From a virus (taxonomy: Duplodnaviria > Heunggongvirae > Uroviricota > Caudoviricetes): a stretch of DNA of 64,000 bases. The notes under the pieces were generated by a model. That model was not told the DNA's origin and made no database searches. It saw only the letters and a list, made by a program, of their open reading frames with translations. Location of the stretch: the IMG/VR virus record IMGVR_UViG_3300018488_000300; one strand, given 5' to 3'. A program made the position numbers and the translations under genes. Positions 59,727-62,535 of this stretch are shown in pieces (position 1 is the stretch's first letter; each line of letters starts with the position of its first letter).

Positions 59727-59800
59727 GGTGACCGACGGGAGTTGAACCCGCAAAATGGCGGAGCCACAATCCGCTGCTGTACCAATTGAGCCACGGCCAC
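59727..59800 (-). tRNA. tRNA-His (anticodon GUG) with encoded G-1
   Basis: Anticodon arm GCGGA-TTGTGGC-TCCGC, 8-bp acceptor with an extra 5' G and C73, T-arm GCGGG-TTCAACT-CCCGT. Confidence 0.65.
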
Positions 59801-59802
59801 AG

Positions 59803-59874
59803 TTACGATGATGGGAATCGAACCCATATTGTAGGTTTAGGAAACCTATGTTCTATCCGTTGAACTACACCGTA
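59803..59874 (-). tRNA. tRNA-Arg (anticodon CCU)
   Basis: Acceptor TACGGTG/CATCGTA, D-arm GTTC-AACGGATA-GAAC, anticodon arm TAGGT-TTCCTAA-ACCTA, T-arm ATGGG-TTCGATT-CCCAT. Confidence 0.65.
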
Positions 59875-59875
59875 A

Positions 59876-59949
59876 TATCAGTAGCTGGAATCGAACCAGC
59901 GGCCTCCATGGTATGAGTCTGGCGCTCTTGCCTGCTGAGCTATACTGAC
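59876..59949 (-). tRNA. tRNA-Met-like (anticodon CAU) with weak anticodon stem
   Basis: Acceptor GTCAGTA/TACTGAT, D-arm GCTC-AGCAGGCAAG-AGC, loop CTCATAC but only 3 of 5 stem pairs, T-arm GCTGG-TTCGATT-CCAGC. Confidence 0.4.
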
Positions 59950-59960
59950 ATGAATGAATA

Positions 59961-60010
59961 AATTTAGCTCCGGTTATGGGCCGGATGCTCTAACCAACTA
60001 TATGGTTTAA
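59961..60010 (-). pseudogene. 5' half of a tRNA (acceptor-D-anticodon arms, anticodon CAU) with no T-arm
   Basis: Reverse complement reads ...ATAGTTGGTTAGAGC-A-TCCGG-CCCATAA-CCGGA-GCTAAATT, then runs directly into the 5' end of the next tRNA. No T-arm follows. Confidence 0.35.
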
Positions 60011-60081
60011 AGCAAATGAAGGGAATCGAACCCTCAACTCTGCTATGGCAAAGCAGCATTTTTCCGTTAAACTACATCTGC
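60011..60081 (-). tRNA. tRNA-Gly (anticodon GCC)
   Basis: Acceptor GCAGATG/CATTTGC with U73, anticodon arm CTGCT-TTGCCAT-AGCAG, T-arm GAGGG-TTCGATT-CCCTT. Confidence 0.6.
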
Positions 60082-60239
60082 ATGTGTTCCTGTCCGGCCT
60101 TTCACCAGTTCTCGCAAATCGCTCTCTACTTTTTATTCATGAAAAAGTGATGTATATAATCCTATGGTCATGACTCCATATTATTATTTCACATAGGAAC
60201 ATATTAATTTTCTAAAATAATAAAATTTATAATTCAGAA

Positions 60240-60313
60240 TAGTGGATACCAGGCTTGAACCGGTGACCTTTGGATTATCAGACCAACGCTCTAACCAACT
60301 GAGCTAATCCACT
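60240..60313 (-). tRNA. tRNA-Ile (anticodon GAU)
   Basis: Perfect acceptor AGTGGAT/ATCCACT, D-arm GCTC-AGTTGGTTAG-AGC, anticodon arm TTGGT-CTGATAA-TCCAA, T-arm ACCGG-TTCAAGC-CTGGT. Confidence 0.7.
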
Positions 60314-60547
60314 ATAGCCGGTAAAGCTCCGAAAAGAACCCGGATTGCTATATATTACCATCTTAACATGTACACACCTACTTCGTAGTTGACAGCGTTA
60401 TATAGACTTATGTTTGTTTGGTGTGTTTTACACGGAGCTTATATACACTAATGGTTTCACTTATCTTTTCCCAGCCTTCTGACTGCCAGTACTTGCACAG
60501 AGGTTCGTTTACTCCCAGCTCATTAGCTGCCATAGGCATTAGCGTAA

Positions 60548-60619
60548 TACCCGCTACAGGACTTGAACCTGTAGCTTCTTCCTTGTAAGGGAAGCACTCT
60601 CCCATTGAGTTAAGCGGGC
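60548..60619 (-). tRNA. tRNA-Val (anticodon UAC)
   Basis: Acceptor GCCCGCT/AGCGGGT, anticodon arm CTTCC-CTTACAA-GGAAG, T-arm ACAGG-TTCAAGT-CCTGT. Confidence 0.65.
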
Positions 60620-60670
60620 GTATTAGTATAATCCATATCATTGATACTTTGTTAATGATATGGGATTGAA

Positions 60671-60744
60671 TCGGAATGGTGAGATCTGAACTCACAACCT
60701 CTCGGTTCCAAGCCAATTGCTCTTCCAAATTGAGCACATCCTGC
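60671..60744 (-). tRNA. tRNA-Pro (anticodon UGG), acceptor has an A2.C71 mismatch
   Basis: D-arm GCTC-AATTTGGAAG-AGC, anticodon loop CTTGGAA, T-arm GTGAG-TTCAGAT-CTCAC. Confidence 0.5.
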
Positions 60745-60749
60745 ATTTC

Positions 60750-61454
60750 AAATTTAATGTCTTCTAAAATCTTTCAAATCACTTTGTGTATAAGGCAAAC
60801 CATATGATTTACACCATTTTCTTATAGCTGTATCGCTTAATTGAAACTCTTCTGCTATTTCTATAAAACTTTTTTGTTTCAGCAACACTTCCAGTTAACT
60901 TTTAATCGGTTTTTTTGATTTTCTTTTTAAATCGCATTCAACACATCGATTGGCCCGAATTGAAATATTCTTTCCACAATCGATGCATATTTTTTTGTAT
61001 TAGTCATATTATAATTTCTTTTCCTTATTGGATATGGTCTATTGTATTTTATATAACGTCCTGTATTTATTCCCTGTATCATTTCTTCGCTAATATCCCA
61101 TTTTTTTGCTATTCTTTTTTGCGTCATATTTGTCATTTCTAAATCGTTCACTATTCCAATAAATGTTTCTTTATTCAAATGTGATTGACCACCAAAACTC
61201 TCATTATAACCATAAAAAAAGAGTCAAAATAATCAATCCAATATATTTCTCTTTCATCTAATTGTTTTTCTTCACATTCCTCAATTATTTCAAATTTAAA
61301 CTTTTCAATTCCATACAATCGTAAATCTTTATATTATATTGATTTATAAGAATGATCTATCTTGCTTTTATATCTATTTTTATGTTTATTTATTCTATTG
61401 TTTATATTTATTGATTGTCCAATATAAGACTTTCCATTTTCGATATTTGTAATT
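60750..61454 (-). pseudogene. GIY-YIG homing endonuclease gene inside tRNA array 2, disrupted by an in-frame TAA and frameshifts (one at a T7 run)
   Basis: RBS AAAGGAGGG-N5-ATG, then MIGIYKITNIENGKSYIGQSININNRINKHKNRYKSKIDHSYKSI-TAA-YKDLRLYGIEKFKFEIIEECEEKQLDEREIYWIDYFDSFF. After a shift at tcttttttt come YGYNESFGGQSHLNKETFIGIV...NAI (listed ORF 60927..61178). A further frame holds a C-terminal HTH, SFIEIAEEFQLSDTAIRKWCKSYGLPY. Confidence 0.6.
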
Positions 61455-61579
61455 TTGTAAATACCTATCATATTCCCTCCTTTTTTTGTCTTTGAATAGC
61501 TATTACCAATTTAAACCATCTAAGCTAAATACCATATGTCTCTCTAACTGAGTTAATCCAACATATAATCTTCAAGCAG

Positions 61580-61653
61580 TGGAACCAGAGGGATTTGAAC
61601 CCTCAACCCTTTGCTTGCAAGGCAAATGCTCTCCCATTTAGAGCTATGATCCC
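61580..61653 (-). tRNA. tRNA-Ala (anticodon UGC)
   Basis: Acceptor GGGATCA/TGGTTCC with G3.U70, D-arm GCTC-TAAATGGGAG-AGC, anticodon arm TTTGC-CTTGCAA-GCAAA, T-arm GAGGG-TTCAAAT-CCCTC. Confidence 0.7.
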
Positions 61654-61657
61654 AAAA

Positions 61658-61746: not shown

Positions 61747-61820
61747 TCGGAGCAGTGAGATTCGAACTCACACGTTCTTCCTTCCAAGGGAAGCTGCCTA
61801 CCATTTAGCTGCACACTCCG
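61747..61820 (-). tRNA. tRNA-Pro-like (anticodon UGG), second copy, D-stem A.A mismatch
   Basis: Anticodon arm CTTCC-CTTGGAA-GGAAG, T-arm GTGAG-TTCGAAT-CTCAC, acceptor CGGAGTG/TGCTCCG. Confidence 0.5.
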
Positions 61821-61824
61821 TAAA

Positions 61825-61896
61825 TATCCACAAAGAGAATCGAACTCTTATCATCGATTTAGAAGACCGATGCTCTATCCATTGAGCTATGTGGAT
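61825..61896 (-). tRNA. tRNA-Arg (anticodon UCU)
   Basis: Fully canonical: ATCCACA-TA-GCTC-AATGGATA-GAGC-A-TCGGT-CTTCTAA-ATCGA...AAGAG-TTCGATT-CTCTT-TGTGGAT-A. Confidence 0.75.
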
Positions 61897-61900
61897 GTAA

Positions 61901-61972
61901 TGCTGGATGTTGGATTTGAACCAACGACTCCTGGTATATCAGACCAGTGCTCTACCACTGAACTAATCCAGC
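61901..61972 (-). tRNA. tRNA-Ile (anticodon GAU), second copy
   Basis: GCTGGAT-TA-GTTC-AGTGGTAG-AGC...CTGGT-CTGATAT-ACCAG...GTTGG-TTCAAAT-CCAAC-ATCCAGC-A. Confidence 0.7.
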
Positions 61973-61976
61973 AAAG

Positions 61977-62049
61977 TGGACCAGACTGGAATCGAACCAG
62001 CGACACGAGGATTTTCAGTCCTCTGCTCTACCAACTGAGCTACCAATCC
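61977..62049 (-). tRNA. tRNA-Phe (anticodon GAA)
   Basis: D-arm GCTC-AGTTGGTAG-AGC, anticodon arm GAGGA-CTGAAAA-TCCTC, T-arm GCTGG-TTCGATT-CCAGT. Acceptor has three G.U pairs. Confidence 0.6.
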
Positions 62050-62055
62050 ATAAAA

Positions 62056-62128
62056 CGACCTATATGGGATTCGAACCCATGTCTCATGCGTGACAGGCAT
62101 GTGATTTATCCAATTAATCTAATAAGCC
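62056..62128 (-). tRNA. tRNA-Asp (anticodon GUC)
   Basis: D-arm GATT-AATTGGATA-AATC, anticodon arm CATGC-CTGTCAC-GCATG, T-arm ATGGG-TTCGAAT-CCCAT, G73. Confidence 0.65.
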
Positions 62129-62132
62129 AAAG

Positions 62133-62209
62133 TGGGATGAGATGGAGTCGAACCATCACCATCTGGTTTTTCAGACCAGTGCTGCGGACCGCAAGTAAGC
62201 TATCATCCC
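62133..62209 (-). tRNA. tRNA-Phe-like (anticodon GAA) with enlarged 21-nt D region
   Basis: Perfect acceptor GGGATGA/TCATCCC, anticodon arm CTGGT-CTGAAAA-ACCAG, T-arm GATGG-TTCGACT-CCATC. D region GCTTACTTGCGGTCCGCAGCA can form an internal extra hairpin. Confidence 0.4.
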
Positions 62210-62213
62210 AAAA

Positions 62214-62285
62214 TATCTCCAGTTGGAATCGAACCAACAACCTTTACGATGTCAACGTAATGTTCTTCCACTGAACTATGGAGAT
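62214..62285 (-). tRNA. tRNA-Val (anticodon GAC)
   Basis: Canonical: ATCTCCA-TA-GTTC-AGTGGAAG-AAC-A-TTACG-TTGACAT-CGTAA...GTTGG-TTCGATT-CCAAC-TGGAGAT-A. Confidence 0.7.
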
Positions 62286-62289
62286 ATGG

Positions 62290-62363
62290 CTGGAAGAGTG
62301 GGACTTGAACCCACGACCCACCGCTTAACAGGCGGTTGCTCTAACCAACTGAGCTATCAACCA
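62290..62363 (-). tRNA. tRNA-Asn (anticodon GUU) with U4.U69 and U5.U68 acceptor mismatches
   Basis: Anticodon arm ACCGC-CTGTTAA-GCGGT, D-arm GCTC-AGTTGGTTAG-AGC, T-arm GTGGG-TTCAAGT-CCCAC. Acceptor TGGTTGA/TCTTCCA has two mismatches. Confidence 0.5.
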
Positions 62364-62384
62364 GTAACAATTATTTAAAGCAAA

Positions 62385-62458
62385 CGACTTAGATGGGATT
62401 CGAACCCACGATCTCTGCCGTGACAGGGCAGCGCTTTAAGCCTCTAAGCTACTAAGCC
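62385..62458 (-). tRNA. tRNA-Asp (anticodon GUC), second copy
   Basis: GGCTTAG-TA-GCTT-AGAGGCTTA-AAGC...CTGCC-CTGTCAC-GGCAG...GTGGG-TTCGAAT-CCCAT-CTAAGTC-G. Confidence 0.65.
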
Positions 62459-62463
62459 ATAAG

Positions 62464-62535
62464 CTCCAAGGACAGGACTCGAACCTGCAACATCCCGGTT
62501 AACAGCCGGACTCTCTACCATTGAGCTACCAAGGA
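62464..62535 (-). tRNA. tRNA-Asn (anticodon GUU), second copy, same U4.U69/U5.U68 mismatches
   Basis: TCCTTGG-TA-GCTC-AATGGTAG-AGAG...TCCGG-CTGTTAA-CCGGG...GCAGG-TTCGAGT-CCTGT-CCTTGGA-G. Positions 2, 3 and 7 differ from the other Asn gene with compensating changes, while positions 4-5 stay U.U. Confidence 0.5.

Follow-up and report, generated by a model that had tools for sequence, protein, structure and literature searches.

The tRNA gene array at 59727-62535 (array 2) of a 64,000-nucleotide stretch of DNA from the IMG/VR virus record IMGVR_UViG_3300018488_000300 (this whole stretch is called the window) very likely represents a supernumerary tRNA operon that resides on a giant mobile element of low guanine-plus-cytosine (GC) content; the element occurs in Lachnospiraceae of the human gut (Enterocloster/Hungatella group). 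In reverse complement, the window corresponds to positions ~59,688-123,687 of the ENA contig ERZ27272485:k141_5020 (235,748 bp), of which ~97 kb were inspected. Related loci were reached through the GIY-YIG endonuclease embedded in the array (L008-L011), a neighbouring 248-residue protein (L017-L020) and HPF (L021-L033). An earlier reading of this DNA, made without database searches (the sequence-only reading), had proposed to run ARAGORN on the region and to search databases for the array; ARAGORN found 17 minus-strand tRNA genes, and nine related loci have the same array, among them L008, L009, L018, L019, L020, L024 and L031.

Composition and conservation of array 2

In the window, ARAGORN predicted 30 tRNA genes, which are all on the minus strand and form two arrays. 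In ascending coordinates, the 17 genes of array 2 are His-GTG, Arg-CCT, Met-CAT, Gly-GCC, Ile-GAT, Val-TAC, Ala-TGC, one 89-nt 'Ile-TAT', Pro-TGG, Arg-TCT, Ile-GAT, Phe-GAA, Asp-GTC, Val-GAC, Asn-GTT, Asp-GTC and Asn-GTT. Fifteen of the 17 were confirmed by the Rfam tRNA model at its gathering score, which also added two genes missed by ARAGORN, one Pro-like (60671-60743, 40.8 bits) and one Phe-like (62133-62209, 58.4 bits). The other two ARAGORN genes are weak and appeared in a permissive Rfam search, Pro-UGG at 61746-61820 with 29.0 bits and the 89-nt gene with 17.9 bits. The E-values at the gathering score range from 3e-5 to 1.6e-13, so the matches are not due to chance. Altogether, array 2 contains 19 tRNA or tRNA-like genes, one tRNA fragment and one GIY-YIG pseudogene; the Rfam tRNA score is 62 bits or more for 12 of these genes. 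The sequence-only reading had listed about 20 tRNA genes in order on the minus strand. Each of its 20 RNA entries and the endonuclease are present in that order, but 19 of the entries are genes and one is a fragment, and they are ordered by ascending plus-strand coordinates, the reverse of transcription.

The sequence of L008 is collinear with 62625-59675 of the window at 95.1% identity, and the DNA identity of the neighbourhood among the relatives is 86-97%. Between the window and L008, the tRNA genes differ at 36 of 1,426 positions (2.5%) and the spacers at 52 of 601 (8.65%); the tRNA genes diverge 3.4 times slower than the spacers (Fisher P = 6e-9), which indicates that the tRNA genes as a class are under purifying selection. 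The divergence of the endonuclease is 3.2%, whereas the tRNA fragment at 59951-60010, with 6 differences in 60 positions (10%), appears to evolve like a spacer. All relatives examined have kept the array, whether they contain the endonuclease or not.

In the direction of transcription, the features of array 2 and its borders are as follows (nt, nucleotides; ORF, open reading frame):

62576-62597, minus strand: terminator-like hairpin, TGGAGTCGC-TTCG-GCGGCTCCA, then a T-run; closes the upstream 44-residue ORF unit, ~40 nt before the first tRNA gene
62463-62535, minus strand: tRNA-Asn(GUU) copy 1, first in the direction of transcription (ARAGORN; Rfam 54.2 bits)
62384-62459, minus strand: tRNA-Asp(GUC) copy 1 (ARAGORN; Rfam 67.2 bits); G1-C72, G2.U71, C3-G70, G73
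62287-62363, minus strand: tRNA-Asn(GUU) copy 2 (ARAGORN; Rfam 63.9 bits)
62213-62286, minus strand: tRNA-Val(GAC) (ARAGORN; Rfam 70.2 bits)
62133-62209, minus strand: Phe-like tRNA(GAA) with aberrant D region (Rfam 58.4 bits; missed by ARAGORN)
62055-62129, minus strand: tRNA-Asp(GUC) copy 2 (ARAGORN; Rfam 64.9 bits)
61976-62049, minus strand: canonical tRNA-Phe(GAA) (ARAGORN; Rfam 65.8 bits), identical across all relatives
61900-61973, minus strand: tRNA-Ile(GAU) copy a (ARAGORN; Rfam 70.8 bits)
61825-61896, minus strand: tRNA-Arg(UCU) (ARAGORN; Rfam 71.1 bits)
61746-61820, minus strand: Pro-like tRNA(UGG) copy a (ARAGORN; Rfam 29.0 bits, permissive search only)
61657-61745, minus strand: conserved non-canonical tRNA-like gene (ARAGORN, as 89-nt 'Ile-TAT'; Rfam 17.9 bits, permissive)
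61579-61653, minus strand: tRNA-Ala(UGC) (ARAGORN; Rfam 63.5 bits)
61472-61578, minus strand: leader of the endonuclease cassette, with tRNA-like debris and the ribosome-binding site AAGGAGG
60754-61471, minus strand: free-standing GIY-YIG homing endonuclease pseudogene, in four ORF pieces, with five lesions relative to the homologue P0001
60671-60743, minus strand: endonuclease-linked tRNA-Pro(UGG) copy b (Rfam 40.8 bits), degraded in the window copy
60548-60619, minus strand: tRNA-Val(UAC) (ARAGORN; Rfam 69.6 bits)
60315-60547, minus strand: 233-nt spacer, conserved in L008, L018 and L019, absent in L009
60239-60314, minus strand: tRNA-Ile(GAU) copy b (ARAGORN; Rfam 66.4 bits)
60011-60081, minus strand: tRNA-Gly(GCC) (ARAGORN; Rfam 62.4 bits)
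59951-60010, minus strand: CAU-anticodon tRNA relic, from D-loop to anticodon arm (sequence and fold)
59875-59950, minus strand: Met-like tRNA(CAU) (ARAGORN; Rfam 55.1 bits)
59802-59874, minus strand: tRNA-Arg(CCU) (ARAGORN; Rfam 67.2 bits)
59727-59800, minus strand: tRNA-His(GUG), last of the array (ARAGORN; Rfam 51.8 bits), identical across all relatives
59692-59716, minus strand: intrinsic-terminator-like hairpin directly after tRNA-His, ACCAGTC-TGTAATG-GACTGGT then TTTT (read from the sequence)

The upstream hairpin (62576-62597) has the same sequence in L008, L018, L019 and L020. tRNA-Asn copy 1 is also the first gene of the array in the contig of an Enterocloster aldenensis isolate (L036, 22260-22332), and tRNA-Asp copy 1 shows zero differences relative to L008. 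The loop of the downstream hairpin (59692-59716) differs in L009, where the stem is kept; a simple terminator scan did not list this hairpin. Encoded CCA is absent in 16 of the 17 array 2 genes checked, tRNA-Asn copy 2 being the sole exception. We propose that the array would be transcribed as a single precursor, speculatively by the element's own sigma factor, and that the host would process it by RNase P and RNase Z and add the CCA with its own enzyme. The most likely role of the tRNAs would be to top up the host pool for the A/U-rich codons of the element, so that its AT-rich genes are translated efficiently in a host of much higher GC content. They may also form a reserve when host or rival nucleases attack tRNAs, and the RtcB and kinase-phosphatase proteins of the element could reseal cut tRNAs.

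In addition to the 233-nt spacer, array 2 contains a second long spacer of 157 nt (60082-60238), in which L018 (8497-8829) carries one 175-nt insertion. A functional element in the two spacers was considered and rejected: neither spacer matches an Rfam family, shows excess predicted structure (z = +0.57) or is repeated elsewhere in the window.

Like the array units, the L-arrays and the mycobacterial arrays reported previously, array 2 is dense, non-periodic and confined to one strand; it has many isoacceptors and resides on mobile DNA. A tRNA array unit was defined by at least 20 tRNA genes in a region and at least 2 tRNA genes per kb (Tran et al., PMC4758250). Array 2 reaches 17 genes by ARAGORN and 19 with Rfam, one short of 20; its density of 6.8 per kb (19 genes in 2,809 bp) is above the limit, and the two arrays together have 32 genes in 18.9 kb (1.7 per kb). 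L-arrays are horizontally transferred, contain supernumerary tRNA genes and were defined in phyla with otherwise dispersed tRNA genes, not in Firmicutes; induction under translational stress and function in translation is one of their criteria (PMC8421152). Array 2 shares with array units and L-arrays the supernumerary genes, the atypical members and pseudogenes and the lack of encoded CCA in most genes. Horizontal transfer of the DNA is also found here, as the 34%-GC element occurs in Enterocloster/Hungatella assemblies as well. tRNA arrays have been described on mycobacterial plasmids and phages, too (PMC5966550). Different from array units and L-arrays, array 2 has 19 genes, is one of two arrays 15 kb apart, and lies on a low-GC element of 236-562 kb in Lachnospiraceae.

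The element that carries the array

The GC content is 33.7% for the window and 34-35% for the related loci. Proteins at least 90% identical to those of the element are present in NCBI assemblies of E. aldenensis, E. citroniae and Hungatella hathewayi. The Enterocloster/Hungatella hosts have ~49% GC, so the element, with 34%, is compositionally foreign to them. The E. aldenensis isolate contig QSGP01000005.1 (GCA_003467385.1; 472,371 bp; L032 and L036) is syntenic, with 34% GC in the stretches read; it holds array 1 and the start of array 2, and the spacing between the two stretches suggests that its array 2 lacks the endonuclease. Related metagenome contigs are up to 561,867 bp in length (L024; SUEZ18-1 scaffold_1). 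The window contains at least four TnpB ORFs of the IS200/IS605 type (57972-59216, 51700-53015, 27242-28585 and 29180-30292), and Rfam detected no rRNA gene in it. Ribosomal-protein, virion (capsid, portal, terminase, tail) and conjugation genes were not seen in the ~97 kb inspected. On the basis of the GC content, the TnpB ORFs, the lack of rRNA and ribosomal-protein genes and the near-identical Enterocloster/Hungatella proteins, the proposal of the sequence-only reading that the array is element-borne, and not a chromosomal rrn-linked cluster, is upheld.

The same observations bear on the alternative that the array is an ordinary tRNA cluster from the chromosome of a low-GC Firmicute, of the kind found beside rRNA operons and with simple pseudogenes as its odd members, which we consider extremely improbable. 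tRNA genes normally lie in operons in Firmicutes (PMC8421152). All genes are on the same strand here, the GC skew is steady, and SecY, SecA, ClpP, HPF and topoisomerase are housekeeping-like neighbours. However, beside the missing rRNA and ribosomal-protein genes, no Pfam family was matched by 22 of the 50 ORFs scanned in the window, among them 16 of the 20 smaller ORFs; a homing endonuclease and several TnpB insertions are present, and the array content differs between near-identical relatives. The nearest named proteins are from Enterocloster/Hungatella, with chromosomes of ~49% GC compared to 34% for the element. In the 185,579 species genomes of GTDB, the neighbouring TelA identified no close relative, only unrelated actinobacterial genes at 32-34% identity.

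The element encodes RecD2, one sigma-70 family factor, one S26 signal peptidase and one topoisomerase, together with a ParA-like ATPase, an SLT transglycosylase, flotillin, an ADP-ribosylglycohydrolase, a MYG1-family protein and a DNA methylase. It also encodes HPF, ClpP, SecY, SecA, LytR, two TelA, MscS, a P-type ATPase, PspA, choline-binding-repeat proteins and one 971-residue bifunctional penicillin-binding protein with Transgly and Transpeptidase domains. Its genes for SecA, SecY, ClpP, HPF, S26 signal peptidase, sigma factor, topoisomerase and penicillin-binding protein count as extra copies. RNA-repair-type genes (38861-41529), which code for RtcB, an R2K ATP-grasp protein and a histidine phosphatase, are located just upstream of array 1. 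One kinase plus metallophosphatase protein (2189-3394) matches the first half of the PHROG 'RNA ligase' (Pnkp-like) family at 6e-100.

A huge (jumbo) phage, with the array as its tRNA cluster for late translation and for evading tRNA-targeting defences as in T4, T5 and further large phages, is rather unlikely as the carrier. The many tRNAs, the SegB-like endonuclease, RtcB, the kinase-phosphatase, the ADP-ribosylglycohydrolase, the DNA methylase and the SLT lysozyme-like protein are typical of large phages, and so is one NAD-salvage module in the relatives. Contig sizes of 236-562 kb fit huge phages, and homologues of the endonuclease lie on phage-looking contigs of 140-220 kb with PhoH, HU and NrdD. 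However, no capsid, portal, terminase or tail gene is present in the ~97 kb inspected. Scans of IMG/VR with TelA, the neighbouring 248-residue protein and the odd-tRNA pattern found no relative, and in tblastn the 780-residue protein of the element has no match in the phage (50,697 records) or plasmid collections. The envelope and stress genes (the bifunctional penicillin-binding protein, MscS, P-type ATPase, PspA, LytR, two TelA, SecA/SecY and S26 peptidase) and the stable presence in cultured-isolate assemblies also argue against a phage. With megablast, positions 45000-64000 of the window matched only single tRNA genes in the phage records. tblastn searches with TnpB and ClpP gave no clear host signal, and a literature search on Enterocloster/Hungatella plasmids with tRNA genes did not find the element described.

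By analogy, the mobile element would be of the same general kind as the Inocles, which are giant plasmid-like extrachromosomal elements of oral Streptococcus with sizes of 245-395 kb and ~32% GC (PMC12340149). The tRNA genes of Inocles were counted but not described, and their marker InoC is a protein of ~454 residues with a PF13814 replication-relaxation domain (PMC12340149). Like the Inocles, the element is giant, of ~32-34% GC and rich in insertion sequences; its genes are co-oriented with GC skew, mostly of unknown function, and include tRNA genes. RecD-like helicase, sigma factor, S26 signal peptidase and bifunctional transglycosylase/transpeptidase are present in both. Different from the Inocles, the element belongs to gut Enterocloster/Hungatella rather than oral Streptococcus, its contigs reach 562 kb, and scanning ~97 kb revealed no InoC (PF13814), VirB4 or VirD4.

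Hodors are conjugative megaplasmids of gut Bacillota with 44.6-47.1% GC, and the paper describing them is silent on tRNA genes (PMC12934698). Like Hodors, the element is larger than 200 kb, went unnoticed in the human gut until recently, and has its own SecY and TnpB elements. Different from Hodors, it has 34% GC, and the Hodor markers Rep_3, ParB, sortases and giant surface proteins were not seen in it. Membership in the Hodors is ruled out by the GC content (33.7% for the window and 34-35% for its relatives, versus 44.6-47.1%).

Some other regions of the element were also noticed. The cell-envelope and stress genes (window 48147-50975; L034 259-3174 and 10001-12367; L035) make up a toolkit that resembles the one reported for Inocles. 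At 11593-16594, one 780-residue protein without family match, one 501-residue ParA/MinD-like ATPase and one SLT-domain transglycosylase stand together; this region might be a piece of a partition or transfer module. The 248-252-residue protein at 56786-57544, which has an N-terminal zinc ribbon and membrane segments, shows 29-79% amino-acid identity among the relatives compared to 86-97% for the surrounding DNA; this hypervariability may reflect diversifying selection or cassette exchange.

The GIY-YIG endonuclease and its insertion site

Four short ORFs in 60754-61471 jointly read as one GIY-YIG enzyme that has a zinc finger and a C-terminal helix-turn-helix; the 45-residue N-terminal piece in the window carries PF01541. 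With the reconstructed endonuclease, 2,840 homologues were found. Two intact homologues, both of 241 residues, share 94% (P0001) and 77% (P0002) identity with it, and P0001 matches PF01541 at 2.3e-12 (47.5 bits) and phrog_7168 'homing endonuclease' at 1.9e-30. Compared to the P0001 locus (L008), the window copy contains five lesions: TTA to TAA at 61334-61336, a 1-nt deletion near 61214, a 6-nt in-frame deletion at 61178, a 1-nt deletion in an A-run near 60997, and GAA to TAA at 60895-60897. With its reading frame not intact, the window endonuclease is a pseudogene, as the sequence-only reading had recognized. One contig of a second, independent assembler (Logan L005, run SRR6869094) shows complete identity over 2,709 bp, although it may have been built from the same reads; the lesions are therefore not an artefact of one assembler.

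Recoding or suppression of the TAA codons by an array tRNA was considered and ruled out by the two frameshifts; the intact homologues have the sense codons TTA and GAA, and the window reads normally in code 11. A group I intron as the home of the endonuclease was also rejected, as there is no match to an Rfam intron family and the empty alleles are simple intergenic sites.

The insertion site was found in three states. In the empty state (L018, a 271,782-bp contig, and L031), a canonical tRNA-Pro (69.5 bits, G37) comes 46 nt after tRNA-Ala. In the occupied state with intact endonuclease (L008, L019, L020, L009-L011 and others), tRNA-Pro is of a different sequence type (59.1 bits, A37). In the occupied but decayed state, which is that of the window copy, the adjoining tRNA-Pro scores 40.8 bits. 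The endonuclease is therefore a variable gene among otherwise collinear relatives, and its presence or absence goes along with a changed flanking tRNA-Pro. The boundaries of the cassette lie ~12 nt past the 3′ end of tRNA-Ala and within the 3′ acceptor strand of tRNA-Pro. The cassette leader (61472-61578) is shared by the window, L008 and L019 and is missing from L018. On L015, an unrelated 162-kb contig, one 46%-identical homologue is located 93 nt from tRNA-Pro(UGG) within a 13-tRNA array, and this tRNA-Pro resembles the empty-site tRNA-Pro of L018.

These sites are consistent with what homing and co-conversion of a flanking marker would predict. In our model, a free-standing endonuclease of the SegB kind invaded between tRNA-Ala and tRNA-Pro and brought its own tRNA-Pro variant; the endonuclease-free allele would be cut and repaired by copying the flanking DNA, and the endonuclease would later have decayed in the window copy. 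T4 SegB, which recognizes a T-loop motif of tRNA genes, drives inheritance of the T4 tRNA genes (PMC2330249). A strong enrichment near tRNA genes has been shown for SegB homologues, and SegB can amplify tRNA genes, which defeats tRNA-cleaving defence (PMC13096335). Like the T4 tRNA region, array 2 has a GIY-YIG gene that is between tRNA genes and not intronic, that is present or absent in collinear genomes, and whose flanking tRNA marker differs between the plus and minus alleles, as co-conversion predicts; duplicated tRNA genes are also shared. Different from T4, the carrier is not a T4-like phage and the window endonuclease is a pseudogene. A tblastn search with P0001 against 50,697 phage records (E <= 1e-5) gave 18 hits, which are all in Bacillus, Enterococcus and Lactobacillus phages; no T-even phage was matched. 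The best cultured-phage matches of P0001 are Enterococcus phages at 30% identity, and its SegE_GIY-YIG match of 24.4 bits is under the cut-off of 25. Given the PF01541 and PHROG matches and the presence/absence pattern, the parallel with T4 drawn by the sequence-only reading is apt as an analogy, with no SegB orthology in the tblastn search.

Atypical tRNAs and the role of the array

Array 1 (43661-45066, minus strand, 15 kb from array 2) contains 13 tRNA genes in the window by ARAGORN. In the relatives, including the E. aldenensis isolate contig, it contains 19 (L024 13395-15550; L032 13388-15976). Glu-CUC, Gln-CUG, the second Leu-UAA, Thr-CGU, Leu-CAA and Leu-CAG are missing in the window, which points to deletion by recombination between similar tRNA genes. 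Some members of array 1 are also atypical. Gln-UUG (44818-44904, 87 nt) has a long variable arm of A/T only and Lys-UUU (44490-44571, 82 nt) a short GGC/GCC variable arm, both of which are kept in all relatives; Glu-UUC (44718-44792) has only two T-stem pairs, and one Leu gene (43893-43975) has A34 and the anticodon AAG.

In array 2, the Phe-like gene has a D region of 8 unpaired nt followed by one 5-bp stem with a 3-nt loop, and it lacks G18G19; the abnormal D region noted by the sequence-only reading is thus real. The gene is a divergent paralogue of the adjacent normal tRNA-Phe and was found by Rfam in L008, L018 and L019 at 59.9-64.6 bits. The CAU relic contains the D-loop motif AGTTGGTTAGAGC, a perfect anticodon stem (TCCGG/CCGGA) and the loop CCCATAA, without acceptor strand, 5′ strand of the D-stem or T arm. 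It had been taken for a T-arm-less 5′ half; the CAU anticodon and the missing T arm stand, but with no 5′ acceptor strand it is an internal fragment from D-loop to anticodon arm. It is present in L008, L018, L019 and L009; U33 is changed to C in the window, and the loop is CTCATAA in the relatives.

The window copy is the most eroded of the family. The Met-like gene, which the sequence-only reading had listed as such, is present, and its damaged anticodon stem is limited to the window copy, where 3 of 5 pairs are left (substitution at 59909); its Rfam score is 55.1 bits in the window and 65.0-65.3 bits in L008, L009, L018 and L019. Relative to L008, tRNA-Pro copy b has lost 1 nt of its D-stem and carries four substitutions, with 40.8 bits in the window and 59.1 bits in L008 and L019, compared to 69.5 bits for the different tRNA-Pro gene of L018, which has no endonuclease. 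The loss of the six array 1 tRNAs, the dead endonuclease and extra TnpB insertions complete the erosion. The TnpB insertion at ~57886-59331 (ORF 57972-59216), beside array 2, is absent from L008, L018 and L019, and the TnpB pieces at 51700-53015 interrupt an EAL-domain gene, of which the relatives have an unbroken version (213 residues).

The tRNA-like gene at 61657-61745 (87-89 nt) has one 7-bp acceptor stem, one canonical T arm with a GTTCGAT loop and one extra hairpin. Of the description in the sequence-only reading (86 nt, perfect acceptor and T-arm, no assignable core), the good arms and the lack of a normal anticodon loop hold, and the length is corrected to 87-89 nt. All seven relatives with sequence at this position contain the gene, which occurs in five variants. 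Its acceptor is AAUCCAG/CUGGAUU in three lineages (window, L018, L031) and GGCCCAG/CUGGGUC in four (L008, L019, L020, L009); three pairs change (AAU..AUU versus GGC..GUC) with pairing kept, which are compensatory substitutions.

Two folds of its core were compared. In the ARAGORN fold, the variable arm is long, the anticodon arm consists of A and U only and presents UAU in the loop AAUAUAU with A33, and the D-stem barely pairs. Rfam aligns the L009 copy at 44 bits, above the gathering score, with U8, a 4-bp D-stem (GUAU/GUAC), A14, G18G19, a 19-nt D-loop insertion and a purine at 26, followed by a 5-bp anticodon stem (CUGGC/GUCAG), a 6-nt loop UUGUC(C/U), a 4-nt variable loop and a canonical T arm; the corresponding 6-nt loop of the window copy is UUGUCU. 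We prefer the Rfam fold, because conserved tertiary positions are kept in it. The five variants differ at too few positions for core covariation. Neither fold gives a normal 7-nt anticodon loop or the combination of U33 with a normal D arm, and a register shift by one yields an 8-nt loop with UGU. The nearest paralogue within the family is tRNA-Thr-CGU (score 24 versus 17.5 for the next best), and the GGC..GUC plus G73 acceptor top equals that of both Asp genes. The identity of the gene may therefore be Thr-like (UGU), Asp-like (GUC) or Ile-like (UAU). An Allo-tRNA (8/4 or 9/3) was ruled out by the 7-bp acceptor and the 5-bp T stem. 'tRNA-Thr' labels on phage blastn matches carry no weight, as only the 23-nt T arm matched (E = 0.8).

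Frameshift-suppressor tRNAs of the sufJ type have enlarged anticodon loops, sufJ itself being a tRNA-Thr with one extra loop nucleotide. Like them, the 61657-61745 gene has in one register an 8-nt loop C-U-U-G-U-C-Y-G with the UGU (Thr) anticodon and the extra base on the 3′ side, and its nearest family paralogue is tRNA-Thr(CGU). Different from them, its better register has a 6-nt loop, and there is the 19-nt D-loop insertion; the likeness is a lead only. That this gene, the Phe-like gene and the long-arm Lys and Gln of array 1 are working non-canonical RNAs seems doubtful to us, indeed a long shot. If they were, they could be decoders whose anticodon loop has 6 or 8 nt, such as a tRNA derived from Thr(UGU) with irregular reading of ACA or frameshifting, or they could be decoys or nuclease-resistant substitutes that shield the translation of the element from tRNA-cleaving defences; the nearby RtcB and kinase-phosphatase repair genes would fit the latter.

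Several observations weigh against a working supernumerary operon on a mobile element. tRNA-His has C73 but T at -1 (59801), so that G-1 is unencoded, and this is the same in every relative; bacterial HisRS normally requires G-1. The acceptor stems of both tRNA-Asn copies contain U.U mismatches at 4:69 and 5:68, despite different neighbouring pairs. tRNA-Pro copy a (61746-61820) has a mismatched D-stem and A37 instead of G37, and is weak on Rfam in every relative; both tRNA-Pro(UGG) genes of the endonuclease-bearing elements have A37, whereas that of the endonuclease-free relatives (L018 7992-8064) has G37. G37 is the site of the m1G modification, a guard against frameshifting, and the array 2 tRNA-Pro with A37 looks impaired, as do tRNA-His and tRNA-Asn. 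On account of these genes, part of the array may be drifting and not working. No sigma-70 consensus promoter was found between the upstream hairpin and tRNA-Asn copy 1. The two arrays of the window copy cover 17 of the 20 amino acids, in line with the statement of the sequence-only reading that they cover most, and under strict wobble 74% of the codons in 34 element ORFs are covered, which speaks for the operon. Against it, Ser, Thr and Tyr are absent; since the frequent codons AUA (340), ACA (350) and GGA have no tRNA either, the set is not self-sufficient. The duplicated genes (Ile, Lys, Glu, Leu, Asp, Asn, Phe) are mostly for the most-used amino acids of the element, in loose agreement with a supply role, but over all 20 amino acids gene copy number and usage are weakly correlated (rho 0.39, P = 0.09), and rho reaches 0.63 after post hoc exclusion of Ser, Thr and Tyr. 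The conservation of the odd genes is weak evidence of function, because the relatives are close. For the homing step, the cleavage site is deduced from the pattern of sites, and the carrier may be a plasmid-like replicon, a huge phage or an integrated island.

The impaired tRNA-His, tRNA-Pro and tRNA-Asn, together with the Met-like stem, the tRNA fragment, the odd gene, the six array 1 tRNAs lost and the endonuclease dead in the window copy, would suit an array that is mostly non-functional cargo, a decaying hitch-hiker kept through the endonuclease and recent spread. The missing consensus promoter fits as well, and very close relatives leave little time for decay. We nevertheless consider this explanation quite unlikely: the tRNA genes change 3.4 times slower than the spacers, 12 of 19 genes reach 62 bits or more, substitutions in the acceptor stem of the odd gene are paired, and the array is kept in every relative examined, endonuclease present or absent. 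The Phe-like gene, tRNA-His without G-1, the tRNA-Asn U.U pairs and the 61657-61745 gene are family-wide and not private damage, and the U.U mismatches look like a retained feature.

For the supernumerary operon on a mobile element, tRNA arrays on mobile DNA and SegB-like endonucleases within them are already known; array 2 is a further example and not a new principle. Some novelty lies in the host element family, in the series of empty, intact and decayed sites and in the conserved extra-hairpin tRNAs. The family, marked by the array, apparently comprises undescribed 34%-GC elements of 236-562 kb, one of them in the assembly of a cultured E. aldenensis. Its empty, intact (with own tRNA-Pro) and decayed sites are a natural system to map the target of a tRNA-dwelling homing endonuclease. 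The conserved extra-hairpin tRNAs, one of which has no 7-nt anticodon loop, would, if expressed and charged, bear on how mobile elements tune or protect translation.

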